A stretch of DNA of 63,758 nucleotides, counting the filler, from Folioceros fuciformis (lineage: Eukaryota): assembly GCA_049999805.1 (NCBI GenBank). It is 13 parts of 13 records of this genome, joined end to end, with 100 filler letters (N's around TTAATTAATTAA, not from the genome) between each part and the next. Parts side by side here need not be neighbours in the genome. Positions count along the whole stretch, not along the records: positions 29,795 to 31,929 come from JBNGIO010002061.1; 12 more parts are not named here. One strand, given 5' to 3'. The notes beneath the pieces are model-generated. The model did no database searches. It was not told where the DNA came from and saw only the letters and a program-made list of their open reading frames with translations. This document shows positions 589 to 48,094 of the stretch, piece after piece (within the stretch, counting starts at the first letter, position 1; each line of letters starts with the position of its first letter). Made by a program: the position numbers and the translations under genes.

Positions 589-1821
589 GGTTGGTTGAAT
601 TCTCCGTTGATAAGCAATTGTCTGCGTGAGCCAAGTTGGCAGATTGCCCGAAAACCAATCTCGTGATTTTGACGGGGGTGGAGAAAGCGACCTTGGCCTA
701 CCCCAGCGACAAGGTTGCCCAGCCTCTCTCAGTTTTTCTGCGGAGGTGGCTCTCTTAAGTGGCATACTGGACATGCCACCTTAATAGGCTTGATTGCATC
801 CTCATTTTGTTGACAGTCTCTAACAGGGACTGATGATTGAATCACCGACGTCGAATCAAGAATAATTTGCAGCCTTACAAATACTCTCTCCAGGATATGC
901 TCAAGAACTGTGATATGATCATGCAAACCTTTAATCAAAGAAGGTAGTTGATTTGGTGAGCCTAAGCCCGCTCTACTAGCTAGGCGCCCCGATTGCTTAC
1001 AACATGAGCAAATAGGGTCTTCTTCTCGGTGTAGGTGCAGAAGCGAAGAGGTGTGAATTGCGGCAATCTCCGTACCTAAGGGTTCGAGAAAGCGTCTCTC
1101 CTATGCTTGATAGAAAGCTAGGCGAGAAGTCTCTGCTCTGCCGACCTACATGGCACCCTCTATCTCGGCGTCTGCGCGGCATGGCGCACGCAGTTCATGT
1201 GCATAAAGCCGCAGACAAAAAAAAGGTTGTGGGATGTCTCAAAGATGCACATACGCGCCAATCCGTGCAGCAGCTAGCCTGCAGATGTGGTCGCCCAGGC
1301 ATGCAAACAGATAATCATGGGCACACACACAAAAAAACGCATGTGCGTCCATGAATTTGCTGGCCTGCATACTGGAAACTGCAGGAGTTTGTTCGCACAA
1401 TACTGTATAAGCCATTGCACGGATTTTGCAAGCGCGCAATCACGACACCCCAAAAAATCTAGCCGGACGCATTTGGTAGTGATTCTATATTATGCCGCGC
1501 TCGATGTGAATGCCTATGGATGCCACCATCTAGAAACCTGCTCTAATACCATAGAAAGTTTTTAGATCGAACAAGAGGATTTGTATTACAGCTGAATCTC
1601 TTTAAGAAGCACTCTTGACAGTTGAAAGCAGTTAGGTTACCTCGATATCTACATATATACAATAAATTAACTTATTCTATTTGACTATTTCGATATGCTA
1701 TTGCTAGACTAAACTAACTTAAAGTACTTTTTTACGTAAAAGCAACAAAAAGACACTAGGTCAAAGAAGAAGGCAAGAAATCAATATTGAACATATACAT
1801 AATGTTACCTCAGTTACATTT

Positions 1822-2952: not shown

Positions 2953-5900
2953 CTAAAACATGCGTTTCTGACGTTCCCTGAGAAGAATCTCGTCAAGCTT
3001 ATCTTTTATCACATTCCATGGGACGAATACACCGCAGGAACCCTTGTACACTAGATTTCTTCTGGCGTAATCTGCCCGGAACTTCGAGGACAACCTGCTC
3101 CATGCTTCCTGCATTGCTTCCGCGTGCTTTCTCTCGAAGGCTTTGTCAATTAACTTACCGAATTTGGTTTTAATATCCTGGGTGATAGCCCGCATCTCCT
3201 CGGTGATGTCCGCTTGGCTCAAACTTTAGGAGGTCATGGACAAAACTCGGAACGCCATCAGAACATTACTTGGCACAAACAACATGGGGAGGAAGATTAC
3301 CACGAAGCGTCAAGAGGGCAGAGGTTGCAGAGAAGAGAGTAACTCACGTATGGGTGTTGATGCCCAAAAGTTCGCCAGACGACGCAAGAAAGACAGCTCC
3401 CCCTGCACAGCCAGGAAAACACTTGTATGTCGCCAAGACATTGGTTTTGCTTAGTATCTTGGAGATCACGCCCCGCACTACAGTCACAGGCTCTTCTTGC
3501 GTGTGTTCAACTGTGGGACTGACTGCGGGCCAGTTCACTCGAGGATGAGATACCATGAACACCTGCTCACCTAGAAGTTGCTTCATGTTGTCTGGCAGCT
3601 CAGGGGAGACTGTGCCAGTGGCAGGGGAAGTAAGGCCTAGATGGGAACCTCCTGGCATGTCCAAGAAAGTCAGATCAAGGTCAGGAAAAGAGGCCTTTTC
3701 CCAGACGCTCACACCTTCCACTGCAAATTCATGGCCCTTGCCTAGCACAACGCCGTCACTGTTCATCACATTGTGCATAACTGTCAATCCCAAATTTCTT
3801 TCCACTACAATAGCTGACCCCACGATAGCTCCCCCCGAGCCGCGAAGACTGTACACAAACTGCGCGCTCATCTTGAAGTAGCTGGACCTTATGTTTTGAG
3901 GAATCTGTTCCTCTTCCACTACGAGAGATTTGGGTGCCTCTTTGGGAAGGGAAAAGTTAGGATCTGTGGGCGCTTCTACCGTGCCAGACGAGCCCAACAT
4001 GGATTGAATTGCTCCGGCATTTGGATCGGTGATAGCTCCGGTAAGTAGCAGTGCGGAAGTTGCCACAAGCTTACTCACTTCGGAAGTCGATTGTACATTT
4101 GTCGCATCTATTTCTTGTACTCCATCCTTGTCCTCCTCTTGATCAGTCACCTTGTAGTCAGAAATGGAAATAAAACCTGAATTCCCCGGATATGGGAGTG
4201 CAACGAGGCAAGGATGCTCACCAATCGTAGCATCAAATGTGAGGAACTCAGGTGGATCCTCGAAGACATAGTTTTCCAGAGGAATAGTAACTTTAACTCC
4301 TGTCAACTCCTGGAACCTGTCTGTTACCCACTGTGCTGCATGAAACACACTTAGTCCATACGTCCGGATAACATAATTGATGGCATTAACCATCCCTTCC
4401 TGCCGCAGCTGGTTGCCAATCAGCCAGCCCTTGAGTTCATTGCGTTCTTCTAATTGCAACTCAGAACAAATTTTCCTGAGAGCATTTTCGTAGAGCCGCA
4501 TTGTTAGCAGTCCTTCTTGCCACTTTCGATCATTCTCCTCCCGCAGAGCCCTGCGGAGGGCTATGGCTGTGCGAGCCTGCCCCAGCTTGTACCTCTTCCT
4601 TTGCCGCTCTTCCACAATCCGCAGCTGGCGCATGAACAGGGCATGGGCATCCTCAATACCTTCCAACCGTCTGACCTCCCTAATGGCCTCCCCAAGAGGG
4701 TCTTTGCCCTCAGGATCCTCTAGATTGAGCCTATCCTCAATTCCTAGGTTGCCTAAGGATGCCCTGATGCCCACCTTGATCGTCACAGAAGAATCATGAG
4801 GATCAGTGACCTCCGTCAAGTCCACATGCATTCTCTGCGAGTCGTTCCTTCCGCCCCGGGTTGTCAGTTGCAGGGACACGGAATGATCAGACATCTCGAG
4901 CAATTTCACTTGAACCTCTTGCTCCAGGCCGAAAGAATCATCATCCTCTCCTTCAAATCCTGCCTTTTCCTCAACTGTCCGGATAACTTTTCGCAAGGCA
5001 TCCCTGTCCTCTGATAAGGTCGCTAGAACCTTTCGGACTCTAGATTCCTCGCACGGCAGGTCGGACTCCTTTGCAGCAGTACTACCTGTTCGTCCAAGCA
5101 ACCGCCTTAATGCTCTGATGTGGCCCTCCAGGTCATCGAGCGATTGTTCAAGTTTTCCGTATAGAGCTTGGGCAAGGGCTTTAGCCTGGCGAGCACAAGC
5201 TGGGTCTGTCTCCTTCTCAAGCGCTTCCAAATGCTTCAGATGCTCAGCAAGAACATGGTCTTTTGCCTCCACCAAAAACCTCATCTTCCTATGCCTCAGC
5301 AGCTGTGACTGCTGTTGGAGCTCTTGCTCAAGCTCGCCCAATGGAGGCCTCCGGTACGAGGGACCTATCTCACTCCGACTGAGTACTGCGCTTAATGGTA
5401 GTAAGACCTTCTCGTCATCTGAGCTTGGCTGTTTACTTGCAGTCCAGTGTGCCCCTCTCTTCACAGCAGCTTTCTGTGGAAGGATCCTGCTCAGGCCGAC
5501 TGACGGGTGCCTCGCCAGCTTGGCAACAAACGCAAATTTGTCCACTGCTAAAGCCAAAACCCTTTCGTTGATCACCTCAAGCCACCGGCGAGCTGTATCG
5601 TAGCGATCCGACATGGTCGGAATATTAGGCTCCTCCATTTCCGACTGGGCATCGGCAAACAACTTTTCTGTGATCACAGCTTGCCGCTCAGCCTGCAATT
5701 CCAATTGCTTCTCAGGTGATTGGTACTTGGCCAGTGTGGTACGAGCCTGGCAAACCAGCATAGGCAACTTCTTGTGATACGCTGCAGAGTGAACCATGAC
5801 TCGTCGATTTGCTCGGAGAAGGCATTGCCGGCGTTCGACCGAATAGAGAAACTGAGATTGAGATGCGGTCAAACGACTAGGTCGAGGAGGTAATGGGAGA

Positions 5901-7192
5901 GTCAGAGGGCGATCTGGAGCTCTGAGTGCAAGCTGTCGTTCCCTCTGTTCTGCGACTCTCTTTATCCAGTTCTTCGCTTTCTTCTGGAAAAACTCGGTCT
6001 GCATCCTTTTCATACTTACGGACTTGCCTTCCCACTTCACCAACTGCAATCCTGGATCCTCAGTTCTTTCGTGCACCTCAGATGTGCTCTGTCCGACATG
6101 ACCACGTAAGGAGATTTCGAGGAGATTCTGGACTAGCTCCTCTTCAGCATCCCGTCGAGCTGGAGTGCCCACTTCAGCAAGCACGAAGTTCTCCAAGAGC
6201 TTAGGCTGAAGCTGGCCGTGGTAGATCAAGAAATTGTTCTGTCCCAGAGGCAGAGCTGGCCGCCGCTCCTCTTCCTGGTGCCACGACAGAGGAGCCTTTG
6301 GCAAATTCCCTGGTCTACTAAGGTCCAATCCCCAGGCGTGAGACGGGGGAAGGTGGAGCGATATCATCCCCGACGTCTGCAGAAGGGGAACGTCGTCCCG
6401 ACGCACATCAATCACAAATGCATGAATGGCTGGAAGCTGGCTGTTTGTATCCCCAGGTGAGGACGTCAATGGTTCCAGTGTCCTCAGTGTCTTCATATCC
6501 AGCTTGGAGAGCACCGGCGCTGTGATTCCTTCGTCTGACCTTATTCCAATTGAGCTCCACCCCCCATATCTCCCACCTGATGAGGTCGGCAGACGAACAA
6601 TCGTGGCAGTTCTTTCCTTCACCACCCCAATCCTGAACTCTGGTTCAGCAGACGAACCGGACAACCTGTGCAAGGTGACACGAGTGGTGATCTGTATCTG
6701 CAACGCAAATGCGGCAAGGTCTGGATAGCTCAAAATGGGCGACTGTTGCAGCCCCTTCATATCCTCTCCTGATTCCGGACCGGCATCACCGTCCTCCTCT
6801 GTGTACTCATGTACGGAGCCATCAGAGGAGTCAAGGGCAAGTGCGGAATCCCTGGCACATATCGTGTCATCCAGGTCCTCTTCGTACTGCCTTTTTGCAC
6901 CAGCTGCTAACTGCTGCTCGGCAGTCGGAAGCAACGCCATCATGAGGGTGACATCAGAGTTCTGGTTTGATGCCGGTGGCTGCTTTGTCCCACCTGCTCC
7001 TCGTGTCCGAGGGAACCGTCTCTTGACTTCAGCAACTACATCCTGTGGTGGGTCTTCGCTCTCCTCCATTTCTTCGTCTTCGTCCGTCTCCTCACTTTCC
7101 TCGTCCGTTTCTCCGCTTTCCTCCTCAACTTCGTCCTCCGTTGTATCTTCGTCGTCATCAGACACAGGATTCTTCCTGGGTCTGCTTCTGCC
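2953..7192 (-). CDS. Large uncharacterised protein (>1300 aa, 5'-incomplete): acidic N-region, coiled-coil-like middle, C-terminal trypsin-like domain; one predicted intron at 3224-3347
   Basis: The 1273-aa ORF is open to the contig edge. Trypsin-like motifs: GSAIVV..LGLTVMHNV, DLDLTFL, VFMVSHP, RGVIS, PGCAGGAVF..SGELLGIN. A GTGAGT...AAAG intron joins it in frame to ORF 2953-3222, which ends GVFVPWNVIKDKL. Confidence 0.7.
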
Positions 7193-10497: not shown

Positions 10498-10538
10498 CGA
10501 AATATAGACTCACACATCCATCTTCGTTTAGATTAGGG

Positions 10539-10734
10539 TGGGGTGCGCCAGGCGATGGAAGTAGTGCAATACCAATGCGACGCGCGCAGAGCCGAGATAG
10601 CAAGCTATCCCGTAAGGCCTGCCCCTGAAAGAAATTAGATTAATATCATGTGAATCGATGATCCACGTATCAGATATTAAACTGATAAGAACAGATACTA
10701 CACTTGATCTTAGCCAAAAGGCCGAGAAAGGTAC
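10539..10734 (-). ncRNA. U2: U2 spliceosomal snRNA
   Basis: Minus strand reads GTACCTTTCTCGGCCTTTTGGCTAAGATCAAGTGTAGTATCTGTTCTTATCAGTTTAATATCTGAT (branch-point pairing GTAGTA), then GATAGCTTGCTATC and ATTGCACTAC. A TATAA lies ~30 nt upstream. Confidence 0.96.
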
Positions 10735-29794: not shown

Positions 29795-31210
29795 TGTGCA
29801 TTGCAGGTCAAGTTACGACAGATCTTGTTCGATGGGCTCAGCGGTATGCAGTCTCATCAGTATAGCATTGCGCGTAACTTGATCAGATTTAACTACGATG
29901 GTATGGACGTGTTCTTGGAAAGCAGTGGGGATATTCGGGACGAGACCGGGGACATCGGGGATCGTGTTGACATTTTGATGAGGTCAGTCAAGAGCAAAGA
30001 CGAAACGATCCAGTTTCTCGAGCAGCGTATTGTTGCGGAACTGAGAGCATTCTGTGCCTCTCCTGAAGGCAGTCCTGGAGTTGAACTAGTAGACGGGATC
30101 ATCAGGACTGAGTGTGTGGAGAAGCTCACTCTCTGTATTCACCGACACAGTCAATCGGTTCTCAACCAGCGTTTGATGGAGTGCCTTCTAGATCATCACA
30201 AAAGCCATCCAGTACAGACTTCCTCCGGCTCGAAGTCGTCCGATTATCGATGGTGCTGGCCAGAAATGCCTGAAGCCGGTCTATCCTGTGTATACGAGAA
30301 AGCCAGGGATCTGTTAAGTAGCGAAGAGGTGCAGTCTGATTTGCAGCAGCGTGGGCCCCGTCCATCCCTCGACGCAACGAGTGGCCCTTCAGCTGGAACA
30401 AGTCAGCCACAGGTACCGCCTATACTCAAGTCAGGGAAGGAACTATCATACCCTAACGAAAGGGTTAAAGGAGGTCACCGGAGAGGTCTTGCAATGATAG
30501 TCAGCATGGAAGACCACAGACGTGGAGGACAGGTAGACAGAGGGCAGCTTAAATCTCTCTTCGAGATGTTGAAGTTTCATACAGATATCGTGGTGAACAG
30601 TCTTAAGGAAGGGACATCAAGGTTGAAAGGCATTCTTAGGGGTCCTCGCCTAGCTGAAGACGACTGCTTTCTGTTTTGCGTGAACGCCTTTGGTGGGACT
30701 GATGAAGACGGAAGAGAGTATGTTTGCTCAGGTGAAGCAGTGAATGCGGAGAAACTGTATGTTGAAGAAGATATTTTGAAGCCCATCGGTGAATGCGAGT
30801 ATTTGGCAAACAAGCCCAAGGTGGTTGTCATAAATGCTTGTCGAGGCACTGGCAGTCTGGTCAGAAGCATGAAAGCACAGGGGTCGGGCCCCGCCAACCT
30901 TGCCACGACCAGCAAACCCGAGCGGTCAGACGTTGAGGGAAGCCAAGGGCCCAGCAAGAGAATCCGACACTTGTATCACGCGAAAGATTTTCTCATCGTC
31001 TTCTCTACCAGTCCTGGAGATTTATCCTTCAGAGATGTTCAGGAAGGCACAAACTTCATCATAGCTTTCGTGAGAGCCATCATTAAGCACTCGCGAACCG
31101 AAGATGTGGTGAGCATTCTAACAAGAGTGATTGGGAAGGTCACCAAAATGCAGGGAGTGCAGTGTCCCCAGTTCCTCAGCACACTCACGGGAAAGCTATA
31201 CTGGTCTTAA
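29795..31210 (+). CDS. 5'-incomplete TORNADO1/ROCO-like protein (COR-region end) fused to a caspase-type peptidase C14 domain (p20+p10)
   Basis: N-part: LQVKL..VDILMRSVKSKDET..GIIRTECVEKLT..RHSQSV..YRWCWP..EKARDLL resembles TRN1. C-part: RRGLAMIV, RRGGQVD, DDCFLFCVNAFG, CEYLANKPKVVVINACRG, DFLIVFSTSPGDLSFR..GTNFI, ILTRV, QCPQFLSTLTGKLYW. Confidence 0.85.
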   Translation, partial: CALQVKLRQILFDGLSGMQSHQYSIARNLIRFNYDGMDVFLESSGDIRDETGDIGDRVDILMRSVKSKDETIQFLEQRIVAELRAFCASPEGSPGVELVDGIIRTECVEKLTLCIHRHSQSVLNQRLMECLLDHHKSHPVQTSSGSKSSDYRWCWPEMPEAGLSCVYEKARDLLSSEEVQSDLQQRGPRPSLDATSGPSAGTSQPQVPPILKSGKELSYPNERVKGGHRRGLAMIVSMEDHRRGGQVDRGQLKSLFEMLKFHTDIVVNSLKEGTSRLKGILRGPRLAEDDCFLFCVNAFGGTDEDGREYVCSGEAVNAEKLYVEEDILKPIGECEYLANKPKVVVINACRGTGSLVRSMKAQGSGPANLATTSKPERSDVEGSQGPSKRIRHLYHAKDFLIVFSTSPGDLSFRDVQEGTNFIIAFVRAIIKHSRTEDVVSILTRVIGKVTKMQGVQCPQFLSTLTGKLYWS

Positions 31211-32029
31211 CCACTCCATTCTCTGCAAATGCCTGGTTGGCTAGCGTGAGGAGCGTGTGGTCAGGGCCTGTAGTGACTTCCATCAAGTGTTAGGTATCAA
31301 GTGTCTCTCTAGCTACATACTGTACTGCCAGCTTATTGGTGTGTCGAACTGCCTCTGGTCTGACCTTCTCACGTCTCCTCCCGTTCTCTGCCTGGCGTTG
31401 GGAGCTTGTGCTTTCGTGTCACAGTGATACCAGTGATAGCACGTTTTGGGTTTGGTGCTGTGGCCGTAGTTTCTCCTGGTTTGGACTACATCTTTCTCTC
31501 TCTTCCTCTTTCAATAAAGCCCGGGTTCTCTCCACTAAATACTGACCGACATACAGTACATGTACTATATTTAATACTCTTGTCCCGATCAGCAGCAGCC
31601 AAGAACGTTCTCGATCGCGCAGGAAACGTGTGGGCCGGCCAATCTCCGGGCCGACCGACCACCAGTGGAATACAGTACGGTGTTGCAGCGTACTGGGAGC
31701 TGCCAGTAGTGACATGCCTGACATCTCTGTGTCGGTGCAGATTCAAAAAATAGTAGACCGACCTGGTTTGCGCTGTGTTGAGCTCTGTTTCCGTTTGTGC
31801 AGTTACCGTGGGAATTGGCAGAAACTCCAAAAGCGGATTTCAAGTAAATTCTGGTTGATGAATCTCCAGTTGCCTAATGCACAGGTTGATTTCAAGTAAG
31901 TTGTTCTTCCCGGGATCCTTCAGGATGTCNNNNNNNNNNNNNNNNNNNNNNNNNNNNNNNNNNNNNNNNNNNNTTAATTAATTAANNNNNNNNNNNNNNN
32001 NNNNNNNNNNNNNNNNNNNNNNNNNNNNN

Positions 32030-32466
32030 TGTGTGAAGAGAGGGGTGGGAATCATGTAGTGCAAGGACAACCTGGCTATGCTATGGTTGTGGGTGAGAAA
32101 AATTGCAAGTGGATTCGCAAGCTTTCAGTGAATGGTGCCAAGATGTTCTTTTTTCTAGTCAAGGTAGGGCTTCATGTGGCTGCTGGGATAGACATACCAA
32201 ATGGTATGAAAGGACTTGCATTAGGTACAGAATCCATCTTGGCCAATAGTGAATTGGTACTAATGCAAGCCACAGATAGGGATGATGGGGAAGTGGCCAT
32301 GGATGGAGAGTTGACAGAGCTTCTTGAGTCCCTTCGATCTCAATGCCAAATGTGGAAGTTATTTGGGTTGCAACAAGTGAGATACTTGGAAGACAAGAAA
32401 GCAGCATGGCTGTGTGATGAATGCATAATGAAGTGCAAGGATAGGGGGCTTGTTGTAGATTGTTGA
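32030..32466 (+). CDS. 3' end of a TORNADO1-like gene (canonical C-terminal domain)
   Basis: CEERGGNHVVQGQPG, LVKVGLHVAAG..IP and FGLQQVRY..KKAAWLC parallel the TRN1 motifs CE..MHVVEDQ.G, RIGA..AAG..IP and FGLWRVRY..IAWIC. Confidence 0.8.
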
Positions 32467-33524
32467 TTTTCGAAGATTAGGAGTATGAAATGTAATAGGT
32501 TTGCTTTACTATGCCACTTTGTATGTAGCATTGCAATGCACCACTATTAATCATATATTGTAATGAAGGATTTGGATTCAAAAGCATGGTTGTATTTTAT
32601 TCTATGAATGATGATGAGAAATAGTGTAATCCAATGTTAGTTAGCATAACATTTTATGAATCGAATATTATGAAAGAGACTTAAGACGAAAGCCTAGAAT
32701 CCATATTTGTAGGTTGTGGGAACATTTGCTCACTTCCGCATGCGACATGCAGTGCTAAGGGTTTAGATATGTGGGCAAGCTCTTTTGTTGACATTTTCCA
32801 TCCTGATGCCAGTAGCCCCAATTAAACATAACGTAGTGAAAGAAGGATTCTGGTCAAATCAAGTACAGTGGTTGGACAATAGGTCTAAGAGGGTAACGTA
32901 TGTTTTGTGCTCAAGATTCCTTGTTGAGCTGTGCTCTTTTAGTCGATTGTCTCCCTCATGTGCTCCACTCCTAACAATTGGTCTCATGAAGCAATTCGCA
33001 TGTAACAGCAACACTTTAAAGGTGGCTATCTAGATTGACTATTCCTCCACCTCTTTGGGTTTATACTTATACGGAGATGCAAACCCATCATGGCCTCGAG
33101 ATGGCAGGGCAACTTTTCACATCTCCAAACATACACCTTCGGCTTTCAGTAGGCTCTCTCGAGATTGACAAATGGTTGAAGGAGACTAGAGTAGGAGGCC
33201 TTTAACGATGACCAACTCAAAACTCCAACATTAGGATGGGGGAAGGCTATGTGTAGCAAAACCTTTGGATCCTTGTTGTGAGACCTTGGGGCACATATTC
33301 ATGATTCTACTGAATGGAATTCCTCTTATAGAGTATGAGGCTATCATTGCTTCCTAGTACTTGAAAGACCTTAAGTATGGCTTGGCAAGATGTCTAGCCA
33401 CGTGATAGTGATTCAACAGCTAATAGTATTGATCCAACAACTAATAGTATTAATAGAATCAAGAGTGCACGGTCCCATTGTGTCATTCGTGGAGGAGGTT
33501 GCGATAGAATCAGCACTAGTTGAT

Positions 33525-33611
33525 GGCCTACGAGAGTTAGTGAGTACCAAGGGACATGATCTAGTCCTTGGCCTACGAGAGTTAGAGTACCAAGGGACAT
33601 GATCTAGTCCT
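33525..33611. repeat. ~45-bp tandem duplication
   Basis: ggcctacgagagtta(gt)gagtaccaagggacatgatctagtcct occurs twice. Confidence 0.85.
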
Positions 33612-33870
33612 CGCAGTTCCGTAGGCATTTTAGATCAGCAGTCATCCTTCTCGGCTGGACAAGGACGACAAAGGCCTGACGTTTGGTGCCGTGCAGCGCT
33701 CAAGGCATTCGGTGTCCTCATCAATTGCTGTGGAAGGAACTCGGTAAGCAAAGCGAACCATACCCGAACCTTGTTTCTTTGAAAACAGAGCAGTGGACTC
33801 AGCATGAAAATCCCGTGCTGAATCTTAGCATCCCACATCCACCAGAGCATAGAGATAGGTACTGGGAAGG

Positions 33871-34073
33871 CCAAGGTGTCCCAGTCTCTACTTCTGTGTC
33901 ACCCCTTAACGGAGAGGAAACTAGCTTGCACCTTCCTAGTCCAAGGTGTCCCAATCCCCACTTCTATGTCACCCCCTCACGGAGACAAAAACTAGCTTGC
34001 ACCTTCCCAGTGAAAGGTGTCCCATCCTCTACTTTTGTGTGTCACTCTTTACGGAGAGAAACTAGCGCGCACC
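33871..34073. repeat. ~70-bp tandem repeat x3
   Basis: aaggtgtccca...acttct.tgtcac...acggaga..aaactagc..gcacc occurs three times. Confidence 0.85.
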
Positions 34074-34280
34074 ATGCTGAAACCGAAGAGGGAACAAGGC
34101 GAACACCAAGCATCCAAGCGGGCAGATCATTGTTTGTCATTAGGAAGACTTGGGTCAGGCAAAGGCAGTTATTGCGAATCGCAAGGGATCGGGTGTAAGA
34201 GAGGAGACAGGTGCACCTCGAGTTGATCTGGTTGGTCGGACAAGGATACCATCACCTCAATTTGAGTGCTGCTGTCACTT

Positions 34281-36380
34281 GGCATCCATTCATTAGTCTC
34301 TTACCATGAAGGGCCATGAAGAGGACAAGCAGACTCATCAGTAGTACAAGAATTATCACCTCGGGTCCGGTAGCTCGGCGAGCCAGGAACAGCCAGGGAA
34401 GGAAAAGGCGCCATGGACAGACACGCATGCGATGGGGGAGAGGGAGGCCTTCGTCTTTCTGGAGTTTGTGACTGCCTCTTCTTCTCTACTACTGCCTTCA
34501 TCCGTTTTCGTACCAGTCCCGACCTCCTGCCTCTCTGCCAACTTCATAGGGGTGGCGGCTGGATTTGGCAGACGATGCACCACCATGGAAGCCATGAAGA
34601 GAGGAAGATAAAGTAAGCTTGACAGGAATAGCTTGCGTGCCGTTGCAGACGACGACTGGAGATAAAATTGAGATGCCATCAAAGGCATGCAAGTTATCAG
34701 CATGCTTGTCTCCACCGTGAAGTACTTGGAAGTTGTACCCCCTGTTCAGGAACGTGGCAAGACAGATGAAATTGCATCTGAGAGACCACAACTCCCCAGG
34801 CAATACGGCACATGAAGCTTCGACCCGTCACTACTTACATTGGTAAGCTAAAAACCCGAGAGGAAAGAGATAAATGCAATTCCGACGAGCTGCGGAAGCC
34901 GTTCTTCTACCAGAAACATCAAGAAGTGAGAGCATCTTGTACCTGAATCACAACGTCTTGTCAAACATCAGAAGTAATTTTGCCGAAATCTGAGACAGGC
35001 TAGTCGTCTCGTCTTCTTCGATTGAAGACATTAATGAAGCAAAATACCAGAAAATAAAAGAGCCTAAGCCATACCCTCCAGCTGCATAATCACTTCGGCA
35101 GAGAAATGCCAAAGCCATGAAATGCGGAATCTGCCAGAAGTACAAAGCACCAGCAAGCACCCAGCTTGCCGGATCAAGGTGTCCAGAGGCAGCAGCCCAT
35201 CTGCCACCAGCGAGTAAAATCATGAGTGGCAAAGACTCATCTTCCAATTAAGCTAACCCTGAAGGCACACAGCTAAAGCACAACAGGAAACGCAGTAACA
35301 CTGTTGTCTCTATAACACAACGGAACATGGACAACAACATCACGCAAGAGGTAGCCCCACGCATGACCAACTACAATTTCAATTGCAAGTGGTGCCACAA
35401 ACTCAACCTACCCCATGAGCGGAGGAATGGCACCAACAACTGCCCCAACCCAAGTATTAACAGGATGGATCTGCTTGAGAGGAGTGTATGCGACGGTGTA
35501 CAACGCGATGTTCGCAGCTCCTAAGGTGGCTGTCAATGCGTTGGTCTGCAACACAGTTGAGAAAGAAATTTCCCATCAAAACCGAGAACGAGAGCTTTGA
35601 CACAGCAAACAGGATATATGTTTGTTAAGGCGGGCGCCCTAACAAAAAGCAGAGTCACTCCACACCATCCCGTGGTCGGAAGAGTTCGAATGGAGAGAGA
35701 GCAACCTTCCAGGCTAGTACAGTAATGCCAGTAACGCCAAGACAGGCGGCCCACACCAAAACATGAGACACAGTCTCGCGCCCTGACGGCAGCGGCCTTC
35801 GCATGGTCCGCTTCATAACAGCATCGTTGCCAACTTCCATCGCCTGGGCCATCAATCCATGGCATCAGCCTGGAACCAAAGTTCACGGAATTCATGCATG
35901 GGCAGCATTCCCCGAGCTGCAACATCATCTGCAAACCGCAAAAACTAGCACCTGGTTGAATGCGTTGGCAGATGCAGCAGCCATCATGGTCCCAGCTGCT
36001 GTCCACAACCTCTCCGCTTCCCACTACAAATCCTACTCCTGCAGTAGACACGACCAGCATGCTGCAACCAGCAGGGAGGGTGGATCCACATGTCAAAATC
36101 CTGCAATTGGCATCCAGGCGAGACACAGTTCTATTGTTCGGCAGATCTCACTTGAGCCGTGCCTTGGATAGCTGCCAATAGCATTGCCCGTAGTTGCCGT
36201 ATGGCCTCCGCCAGCGGCCTGGATGTATGGGGCAAGACATCGGTCCGTCCGGCAGCTGGTGCTGCTGCTGCCAGAGCTCAAGAAGCTGAAGCAGAAGATC
36301 GGCGCACACCGAGGACCAGGAGAGCGCCGCTTCTCCAGGCCCCCGCCGCTCTGACCAGTGCTCCCAGCGTCATGGCCATT
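34281..36380 (-). pseudogene. COX10: Protoheme IX farnesyltransferase (heme O synthase), intron-containing, with frame disruptions
   Basis: [78 protein letters not shown]. There is a frameshifting deletion near 36000, a stop in exon 1 (36278) and a C-terminal frameshift. Confidence 0.8.
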
Positions 36381-36980
36381 CCCACCTGCCAGAGAGCGCG
36401 TCGACACCAGTGAGGAGCACCAGGAGCTTTGAACAACTGGACGCCACTGGAAGCCGGGCGACCATACGGTGACCGGACGCGCCGGGGGGAGTGGGACCCC
36501 TTAGTGACCGGATGCACCGATCATCTCAAGCCCTATTCTCATCATCGTCGGTGACGGAAGAGCGATCGCCATGCAGCTGCGTGATAGGGTAGGAAGGGAA
36601 TGAGTTGCATCGTATGGGTTGCAGAAGAAGAAACAACGAGAACAAGGATGGAATTCATTTATGGAGATCCTTGCCCTACATGTTGTCCATCAACCGTACA
36701 TGTAAGCTGAATTTTTTTGAATCAGATCACTTGATCCGATTTAGTGGTCTCCCCTTTGTTTGGACGCGCAGTGATGCCGTATCTGCAAGATTTCATCGCA
36801 AGTATGTGATGTTCTTACTGAAACATCTTTTCCTCCGATTTCAGCCGTTGCTGTATTGCAAGCCTTCCGTTTCTGATGTCTCCCAAAACCCTAAGACTTG
36901 AGCCATGTCTATACAGTTTTTCGGACCGTCTTATGGTTTATCTGTACTGCAAGACTGATGACATATGGTCCCTTGTGCAG

Positions 36981-37623
36981 GTTGACAGCCACATTCAGCG
37001 GCTTGATAAGGACCTGAGGAAGTTTGAGGAGGAGCTGAGGAGAGGTTTGACATCGAAGCCAGCATTCTGAGTTCCTCTCGTTCTTACTCAGTTTCGGTTA
37101 TAACCTGTCCATCTTCTTGCGCAGAGCAAGTTCAGATTGGGGGCCAAGGAATTGCAGCAGGGTCAGAGATTCTCATGCAAGAGGAATCAGGGAGGAAAGA
37201 GTACGCACTCAAGACCACCACTTTGTTTCAAAGTGTCCATTCCCTCCTGCAGTTCTCTTTCAGCATGTCGCATCCTGCTTAATTTGCTCTCTGCAGCAGA
37301 GGGCAGTACAATGTTCCTGCTGCCCCACAAGTGGAGATGGATCTTCCAGTGCATCCAAACGAGCCAACGTACTGCTACTGCAACCAGGTCTCGTTTGGTG
37401 AAATGATAGCTTGCGACAATTCAGAGGTGCACATTCTTCCCTCCCTAGCTAAGTTTCTGACACCACTCCAGTTCTTCCCTGCCACCTCTTTCTCAATGCC
37501 TTTTACTCATCTCACTGTTGCACTTGGACATCAGTGCCCGATAGAGTGGTTCCACTTCGACTGTGTCGGCATCACTGCCCGGCCAAGAGGCAAATGGTAC
37601 TGCACCGACTGCTCTACAGTGAT
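36981..37623 (+). CDS. ING-family PHD finger protein (ING1-like), partial
   Basis: [21 protein letters not shown] and [49 protein letters not shown]. The 5' exons are unclear and the 3' end is cut by a linker. Confidence 0.8.
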
Positions 37624-48010: not shown

Positions 48011-48094
48011 GGGGTGGTGGCGCAGTTGGCTAGCGCGTAGGTCTCATAGCTGTGAGGAATCCTGAGGTCGAGAGTTCGAGCCTCTCTCACCCCA
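48011..48094 (+). tRNA. Elongator tRNA-Met(CAT) with a 10-nt intron (48049-48058)
   Basis: GGGGTGGTGGCGCAGTTGGCTAGCGCGTAGGTCTCATA-[gctgtgagga]-ATCCTGAGGTCGAGAGTTCGAGCCTCTCTCACCCCA, with a T-run terminator at ~48107. Confidence 0.96.

Follow-up and report, generated by a model that had tools for sequence, protein, structure and literature searches.

A predicted caspase-type domain fused to a putative COR-B domain of a bryophyte-type ROCO protein in DNA of Folioceros fuciformis

We analysed a 63,758-base stretch of DNA from Folioceros fuciformis (the window), comprising 13 contigs of 1.2–11.2 kb that are separated by identical, artificial 100-base linkers (44 N, followed by TTAATTAATTAA, followed by 44 N). 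One short, unplaced contig of 2,135 bp (29795–31929) carries a single reading frame in which a segment predicted to be the COR-B domain of a ROCO protein is followed by a domain that, by fold and sequence, appears to be a caspase of the animal type. We consider it probable that the contig is the 3′ end of a multi-copy ROCO gene of the bryophyte type, in which the caspase-type domain replaces the module that usually follows COR-B. The caspase-type domain of the copy in the window lacks the catalytic histidine, and the copies of the family that retain it are the candidates for active proteases.

Fusion of a COR-B segment and a caspase-type domain

The frame begins at position 29795, the contig's first base, directly behind a linker, and runs to 31207 on the plus strand (471 codons, protein P0001). 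Because it is already open there, the gene is truncated on its 5′ side. The predicted parts of the frame are as follows:

29795–30349, plus strand: COR-B domain of a ROCO protein (residues 1–185), cut at its 5′ side by the contig end
30350–30472, plus strand: Pro/Ser-rich linker (residues 186–226)
30473–31207, plus strand: caspase-type peptidase C14 domain, p20-like and p10-like parts in one chain (residues 227–471)
31208–31210, plus strand: stop codon TAA, ending the P0001 frame

The C-terminal domain matches the Pfam family Peptidase_C14 (PF00656) over residues 230–469 with an E-value of 9.2e-27 and a score of 94.7 bits (cut-off 21.4), and the match spans the entire profile (positions 1–233 of 233). 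In particular, the frame contains the motifs RRGLAMIV (residues 229–236), R242-G-x3-D248, DCF, KPKVVVINACRG, SFR, ILTRV, and LTGKLYWS. A search of Protein Data Bank (PDB) sequences returned 185 distinct chains at E ≤ 1, and the best 60 of these 185 are all caspases, the best matches being Dronc (3.5e-13) and caspase-8 (2e-9). An AlphaFold2 (AF2) model of the domain, prepared from an alignment of the eight family members, has a predicted local distance difference test (pLDDT) score of 76 and a predicted template modelling (pTM) score of 0.77, and its top Foldseek matches are all caspases, with caspase-9 the best (3v3k_A, E 1.9e-15).

A Foldseek-independent fold comparison with VIA-align, against 48,161 representative chains, gave the same picture. 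Solved caspases and cFLIP have Z scores of 23.2–27.3 at 17–27% identity; specifically, the values are 27.3 for caspase-9 in 1jxq_A (root-mean-square deviation (rmsd) 2.4, 209 residues aligned, 24% identity), 27.0 for 4jj7_A, 24.9 for caspase-4, 24.0 for CED-3, 23.6 for cFLIP, and 23.2 for Dronc. The paracaspase MALT1 has Z scores of 20.0–21.3, a Geobacter protein has 18.1, and the metacaspases have 18.4 (AtMC4, 8% identity), 17.9 (AtMC9), 15.0 (Yca1), and 12.3 (TbMCA2), at 8–11% identity. The nearest ESM Atlas clusters are chordate caspases (score 0.96). The modelled domain is closer to caspases than to paracaspases or metacaspases, and, as far as ranking by structure and sequence can tell, it is of the caspase and not the metacaspase type and resembles the animal C14A caspases (the only tree that contains the family has one fish caspase-8 as its outgroup).

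That the domain is instead a divergent plant metacaspase is hardly credible. PF00656 includes metacaspases as well as caspases, and plants have metacaspases, but no metacaspase is among the best 60 of the 185 PDB sequence matches, the metacaspase Z scores of 12.3–18.4 compare with 23–27 at 22–27% identity for caspases, and the frame carries the paired arginines of the caspase S1 pocket and the pentapeptide NACRG, not the metacaspase motif. Neither a closer match to a metacaspase nor the active-site context of one was found.

The N-terminal segment has 101 relatives at E ≤ 0.001 and 30 at E ≤ 1e-10 in a phmmer search of 1.84 billion representative sequences. A Pfam scan of seven relatives found Roc and COR-A domains in the four long ones (P0004, P0006, P0007, and P0008), with the matched stretch lying directly behind COR-A in P0004, P0007, and P0008, and P0003, the best phmmer match, has a weak Pfam COR-B match over the same residues. 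The AF2 model of the segment (51 sequences, pLDDT 83.5), in which pLDDT is low from about residue 190, in the region of the Pro/Ser linker, has as its best fold match in a wide VIA-align comparison the C. tepidum Roco protein (3dpu_B residues 807–940, Z 10.6, rmsd 2.7, 130 aligned). RocCOR and COR structures of the C. tepidum protein rank first (3dpt_B, Z 9.6), LRRK2 residues 1702–1860 have Z scores of 7.1–7.3, and LRRK1 has 6.1, against a background of Z ≤ 7.5 over about 77 aligned residues for unrelated small domains. Foldseek with the same model returned nothing at E ≤ 0.001, and the ESM Atlas no usable match. Fold, together with position behind COR-A in the relatives, identifies the N-terminal part of P0001 as a predicted ROCO COR-B domain. 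An earlier note on this DNA had read part of a TORNADO1/ROCO-like protein here; the COR part of that reading (residues 1–185) stands, and the leucine-rich repeat (LRR) and Roc parts are not on the contig.

The named relatives of the COR-B segment point to a bryophyte family. Names are attached to 21 of the 23 relatives looked up, and all 21 are from bryophytes (Marchantia polymorpha 7, M. paleacea 5, Riccia sorocarpa 4, R. fluitans 2, Ceratodon purpureus 2, and the hornwort Nothoceros aenigmaticus 1); the annotation "COR domain-containing protein" is frequent among them, and TORNADO occurs in none of the 21 names. The Nothoceros ROCO transcript is 45% identical over P0001 residues 3–181, and identities to liverwort proteins from chromosome-scale assemblies are 35–41%.

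Homologues and sequencing reads bear directly on the junction. A profile search with the caspase part returned seven family members, followed by fish caspase-8 (5e-19). Three of the seven are collinear with P0001 across COR-B, linker, and caspase, namely P0061 (30% identity over 470 columns), P0110 (29.5% over 440), and P0111 (28% over 418); P0002 and P0107–P0109 are known from the caspase part only. The stop codon of P0001 lies at the same place as in relatives, with LYWS at the end of P0001 and LYWR or LDWS in the relatives. The sequence is present in three sequencing runs (X1–X3) from two studies under one organism label, and contigs derived from the reads bridge the junction at 30239–30520 (X1) and 30364–30496 (X3). 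One X3 contig extends 32 letters beyond the 5′ end of the window's contig, and the extension encodes TFLGPGFFPR (translated by hand), identical to the hornwort COR-B sequence upstream of the aligned part. The COR-B segment and the caspase domain are truly fused, as the earlier note had claimed, and its description of one uninterrupted frame with the listed caspase motifs, its distinction from metacaspases, and a plant-like host have likewise been borne out.

Chimera and contamination are unlikely, since three runs from two studies with the same organism label hold the sequence. More broadly, an origin of the contig outside the plant, in an animal, protist, or bacterium that lives on it, is very improbable, and so is a chimeric mis-assembly. 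The contig is short and unplaced, caspases of this type are otherwise animal proteins, and an ordinary animal-type caspase exon occurs on a metagenome contig (L001); but the caspase shares its frame with a COR-B segment of bryophyte affinity, three independent homologues are collinear, and read contigs cross the junction in runs of both studies. The other contigs of the window look like plant nuclear DNA because they carry a copia gag, a gypsy-type integrase, a Nodulin-like/NFD4 protein, and a HECT domain, and the contig of interest has the composition of such plant-like contigs in GC content, GC content at third codon positions (0.53–0.55), and CpG ratio (0.71). Pattern scans, in which only close relatives are visible, found no relative of the caspase family in the genomes of 185,579 bacterial and archaeal species; a pattern scan of viral contigs likewise found none, and NCBIfam and PADLOC, where again only close relatives would be visible, gave no match for five family members.

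A metagenome scan with P0002 returned only L001, which is not a family member. Its positions 959–1609 (plus strand) are a single animal-type caspase exon (LSHG, NACQG) with AT-rich flanks, which has only the domain in common with the family. A search for homologues of P0001 by protein length returned none in the "longer" class and only P0002 in the "near" class.

Active-site residues and copies of the family

Residues of the caspase-type domain were assigned from HMMER alignments to caspase-8 and Dronc and from the eight-member family alignment:

30518–30520, plus strand: Arg242, first S1-pocket arginine (R-x-G-x3-D), aligned to the Arg of caspase-8 and Dronc
30689–30691, plus strand: Phe299 (TTT, in NAFGG) at the position of the catalytic His, aligned to the H of SHG/THG in caspase-8 and Dronc
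30839–30841, plus strand: putative catalytic Cys349 (TGT, in NACRG), aligned to the C of QACQG/QACRG
30845–30976, plus strand: inter-subunit linker (residues 351–394) with Asp residues (for example ERSD-V)
31031–31033, plus strand: Arg413 in SFR, second S1-pocket arginine, aligned to the R of VSYRN in caspase-8

The two arginines, which would form a basic S1 pocket, are invariant in all eight family members. The pentapeptide around the catalytic Cys is of the QACxG type and takes the form NACRG; Cys occupies this position in seven of the eight members and is lost in P0061. The inter-subunit linker differs in length between family members, and domain residues 136–171 are disordered in the AF2 model (pLDDT below 50).

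The position of the catalytic His distinguishes the window copy from its relatives. All seven other family members have His where P0001 has Phe299, and the SHG motif is absent from the window copy. Among the 40 of 170 differences between the window and other copies in the reads that are listed, C replaces the base at 30689 and A the base at 30690, giving CAT, which encodes His; no change at 30691 is listed, and such a change would carry equal contig support. In depth units, the share of the CAT form is 81.6 of 103.6 in X1, 71.1 of 71.1 in X2, and 1299.9 of 1299.9 in X3. Phe299 is a feature of the window copy and not of the family.

The COR-B–caspase family is multi-copy. In each run, 139–219 short contigs match the 2.1 kb at 90–99% identity, with at most six variants at any place, and the 3′ flank of the gene is repeated too in the read-derived contigs, among which one copy joins 30123 to 30377. 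A possible polyadenylation signal follows the frame:

31513–31518, plus strand: AATAAA

In the bins after 31522, depth in X3, a run only guessed to be RNA, drops about tenfold or more, from 153–568 to 8–39; the drop is absent from the DNA runs X1 and X2. Signal and drop together are a weak hint of a transcript end near 31522. In variant copies from X1 and X3, 56 bases of this flank (window 31525–31582) are replaced by 16 letters with two TTTAGGG units, the plant-type telomere repeat.

Several observations weigh against reading the contig as the end of a ROCO gene that carries a working caspase. With respect to the ROCO part, LRR, Roc, and COR-A domains are all absent from the 2,135-bp contig, so that neither Roc, COR-A, nor sensor is on it and the upstream architecture is taken from relatives; Pfam COR-B gives no match on P0001 and matches only two of 51 short relatives at E ≤ 0.01; and a profile of the COR-B family finds no PDB sequence. 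With respect to the plant source, all seven other members of the caspase family come from Logan or JGI assemblies, which makes their plant origin indirect, and no annotated plant proteome gave a caspase domain in the profile search. With respect to the protease, Asp specificity is only a prediction because the Gln of QACRG is replaced by Asn in P0001, and the window copy is probably not an active protease because its catalytic His is lost, a point overlooked by the earlier note, which had presented the domain as a protease. At least one copy has a 1-base insertion, behind 31084. The 33 listed in-frame differences change 29 codons, 12 synonymously and 17 non-synonymously, which suggests some constraint, mild only. 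Finally, no run recorded as RNA holds the contig's sequence.

Some of these points bear on the possibility that the window copy is a non-functional relic among recently amplified and partly decaying paralogues, possibly spread along with repeats, with the change from His to Phe marking lost function and not a regulatory pseudo-enzyme. We regard this as doubtful, though worth keeping in view. The many near-identical contigs and the repeated 3′ flank, the copy with the 1-base insertion and the copy that joins 30123 to 30377, and the breaks in the assembly on both sides of the 2.1-kb piece would all fit, as would a Phe codon that is two bases from a His codon and a minority form in the reads, and a ratio of 17:12 that speaks for weak constraint. 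Against this, the 471-codon frame is intact up to the stop that it shares with its relatives, Cys349 and both arginines are kept, 17:12 falls short of the ratio of roughly 3:1 that an absence of selection would give (our own estimate), and the contig has no transposon features; repeat and Rfam scans of contig and window found no transposon or RNA feature that bears on the gene.

C-terminal modules of ROCO proteins

The COR-B relatives show what usually stands in the place of the caspase. Similarity between P0001 and the hornwort protein ends exactly at the start of the Pro/Ser linker, where the hornwort protein continues into another module of about 300 residues; the linker has no homology with this canonical continuation of P0003. 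The canonical module is present in P0003, P0005, and P0082 in place of the caspase.

In a FastTree tree of 84 COR-B segments, from which P0061 and P0111 were left out (fewer than 100 COR-B residues matched), P0001 pairs with the canonical-ended hornwort protein P0003 with support of 0.95, and the caspase-bearing P0110 pairs, far from P0001, with the canonical-ended P0082 with support of 0.99. Because caspase-bearing proteins pair with canonical-ended ones in the tree, the sequences suggest either that ROCO backbones received the caspase on more than one occasion or that the caspase serves as an alternative end.

The next contig of the window encodes a module of the canonical kind. Its positions 32032–32466 (plus strand) are a frame, open at its 5′ end, for the canonical C-terminal module of the bryophyte ROCO family, with 37% identity to P0003 residues 449–602 (E 1e-20) and further matches to P0007, P0008, P0014, and P0058. 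A tblastn search with five full-length or transcript-derived ROCO relatives placed COR-B at 29801–30349 and the canonical module at 32032–32463, both on the plus strand and in gene order. The module on the next contig could belong to the same locus, as a downstream exon, or to a paralogue.

If it were an exon of the same locus, the caspase segment might be an insert, or an alternative 3′ end, in a canonical ROCO gene whose usual module lies on the next contig. The gene order in the tblastn matches and the pairing of caspase-bearing with canonical-ended proteins in the tree are both consistent with this. We nevertheless consider it unlikely: the contigs are joined by artificial linkers, so their order in the window says nothing about genomic adjacency; the contig on the other side has no ROCO part; the middle part of the canonical protein is short of about 156 residues; the read-derived contigs show no splice joint out of COR-B; and the family is multi-copy, which makes a chance neighbour possible. 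No case of one gene continuing across other neighbouring contigs was found among the window contigs checked. The reading of the contig as the 3′ end of a ROCO gene in which the caspase takes the place of the canonical module remains the one that we prefer.

Two further observations concern the ROCO relatives themselves. Liverworts and mosses have many ROCO (Roc-COR) paralogues, with at least seven named Marchantia polymorpha clusters among the matches. One Riccia relative has a weak match to an alpha/beta-hydrolase (E 0.0015, below the curated cut-off).

Proposed mechanism, known systems, and other contigs of the window

Initiator caspases are activated by induced dimerisation. A predicted homodimer of the P0001 caspase domain scores 0.74, compared with 0.34 for the best of three controls; the mark that it passes is reached by 21 of 30 proteins whose solved form is a pair of one chain and by none of 23 solved as single chains; among eukaryotic proteins it is reached by 17 of 29 solved as pairs of one chain, but by only one of the seven for which no older relative had been solved. 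At least 61% of contacts agree between runs, the partner has pLDDT of at least 75, and the predicted interface is the last strand (domain residues 242–252), as in caspases. Because caspase dimers have already been solved, the pass may reflect the model's memory of those structures.

ROCO proteins pair through COR, according to PMC7159879. In the paralogues that have both His and Cys, an N-terminal sensor and the Roc GTPase cycle would control pairing mediated by COR-B; the pairing would unite two caspase domains through their last β-strand, as in initiator caspases; and the paired enzyme would be switched on and, in the course of cell death or an immune response, would cleave behind acidic residues. 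We hold tentatively, and with somewhat less than even confidence, that the His-bearing paralogues are such GTPase-gated, dimerisation-activated proteases with acidic P1 specificity in cell death or immunity. The mechanism cannot hold for the window copy as it stands, with its His lost; this copy is most likely inactive, being either a regulator or decoy of the active paralogues, in the manner of cFLIP, or a decaying copy.

Comparison with animal initiator caspases (caspase-8, caspase-9, and Dronc; MEROPS C14A) shows a similar modelled fold, at Z 23–27 and 22–27% identity, with p20 and p10 in a single chain, a long disordered inter-subunit linker, Cys in xACRG, both arginines of the S1 pocket, and a dimer predicted to form through the last strand. 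The differences are that the upstream part of P0001 is a predicted ROCO COR-B segment instead of a CARD or DED prodomain, that P0001 has Asn for the Gln of QACRG and Phe for the catalytic His, and that its host is plant-like. Pseudo-caspases of the cFLIP type also combine a caspase fold with loss of a catalytic residue, and the protease-like domain of c-FLIPL (3h13_A) is the one matched at Z 23.6. cFLIP has lost both the catalytic His and the Cys, whereas P0001 has lost only the His. By analogy, P0001 might act as a partner or regulator of paralogues that are active.

A parallel in domain order is found in bacteria. Kaur et al. 2021 (PMC8195603) describe LRR-AP-GTPase(Roc)-COR proteins of bacteria whose C-terminal effectors vary, caspase and trypsin among them, with several paralogues that bear different effectors in one genome. 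The order of GTPase switch, COR, and C-terminal effector is alike in that account, with the caspase of P0001 at the effector position; the hosts there are bacteria, whereas the COR-B segment of P0001 belongs to a bryophyte family. The combination of ROCO and caspase is already described in bacteria; for P0001, the architecture is well supported.

Among plant proteins, TRN1 (TORNADO1) is an LRR-ROC-COR protein according to PMC4104024, and the relatives of the P0001 COR-B segment are bryophyte Roc-COR proteins of the "COR domain-containing" kind; canonical members of the family (P0003, P0005, P0082) differ in ending with the other module of about 300 residues. Plant metacaspases (C14B) share the clan fold and the Pfam family with the P0001 domain and differ in a much weaker structural and sequence match and in other S1 residues. 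Brown algae, which are multicellular photosynthetic eukaryotes, have an expanded repertoire of ROCO candidate immune receptors with module shuffling, as described in PMC11378527, in whose text the word "caspase" is absent.

Two published statements would be affected. A preprint (bioRxiv 10.1101/2023.04.28.538660) describes caspases as confined to animals, with plants having metacaspases only; a caspase-type family with a conserved dyad and an Asp pocket on a bryophyte ROCO protein would contradict this animal-only view. A 2014 review (PMC4104024) limits plant ROCO genes to TORNADO1 of flowering plants, which many bryophyte ROCO relatives would contradict. In the literature searched, which covered text outside subscription journals and supplements, we encountered no plant ROCO protein described as carrying a caspase-type domain, and such a description may already be in print.

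A wider proposal, which we offer as possible and rather speculative, is that true Asp-directed caspases exist in some bryophytes and serve there as exchangeable death or immune effectors on ROCO switches, introduced at the COR-B boundary on more than one occasion or used as alternative ends, with inactive copies as brakes of the cFLIP kind. If true, this would be a plant counterpart of animal apoptosome- and death-inducing signalling complex (DISC)-type systems and of bacterial AP-GTPase conflict systems. A caspase-type family on bryophyte ROCO proteins would in itself link plant, animal, and bacterial immune architectures in which a switch is coupled to a protease, and would provide a directly testable candidate for the "caspase-like" activities long sought in plant cell-death research.

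Other contigs of the window carry features of separate interest. On the first contig, window 3347–7192 (minus strand) is an intron-free frame of 1,282 residues, open at the contig end, with an acidic, low-complexity N-terminal part, a C-terminal Trypsin_2 match (E 4.9e-7), and no other Pfam match; its GCAGG presumably lies at the expected place of the trypsin-type Ser motif. A full-length U2 small nuclear RNA gene (159 bits) and a tRNA gene lie on further contigs, at 10538–10734 (minus strand) and 48011–48094 (plus strand), respectively. At the end of the contig 32030–37623, window 37285–37623 (plus strand) is a frame, open at its 3′ end, which we take to resemble an ING-type PHD finger (HFDCVG...KWYCTDC).

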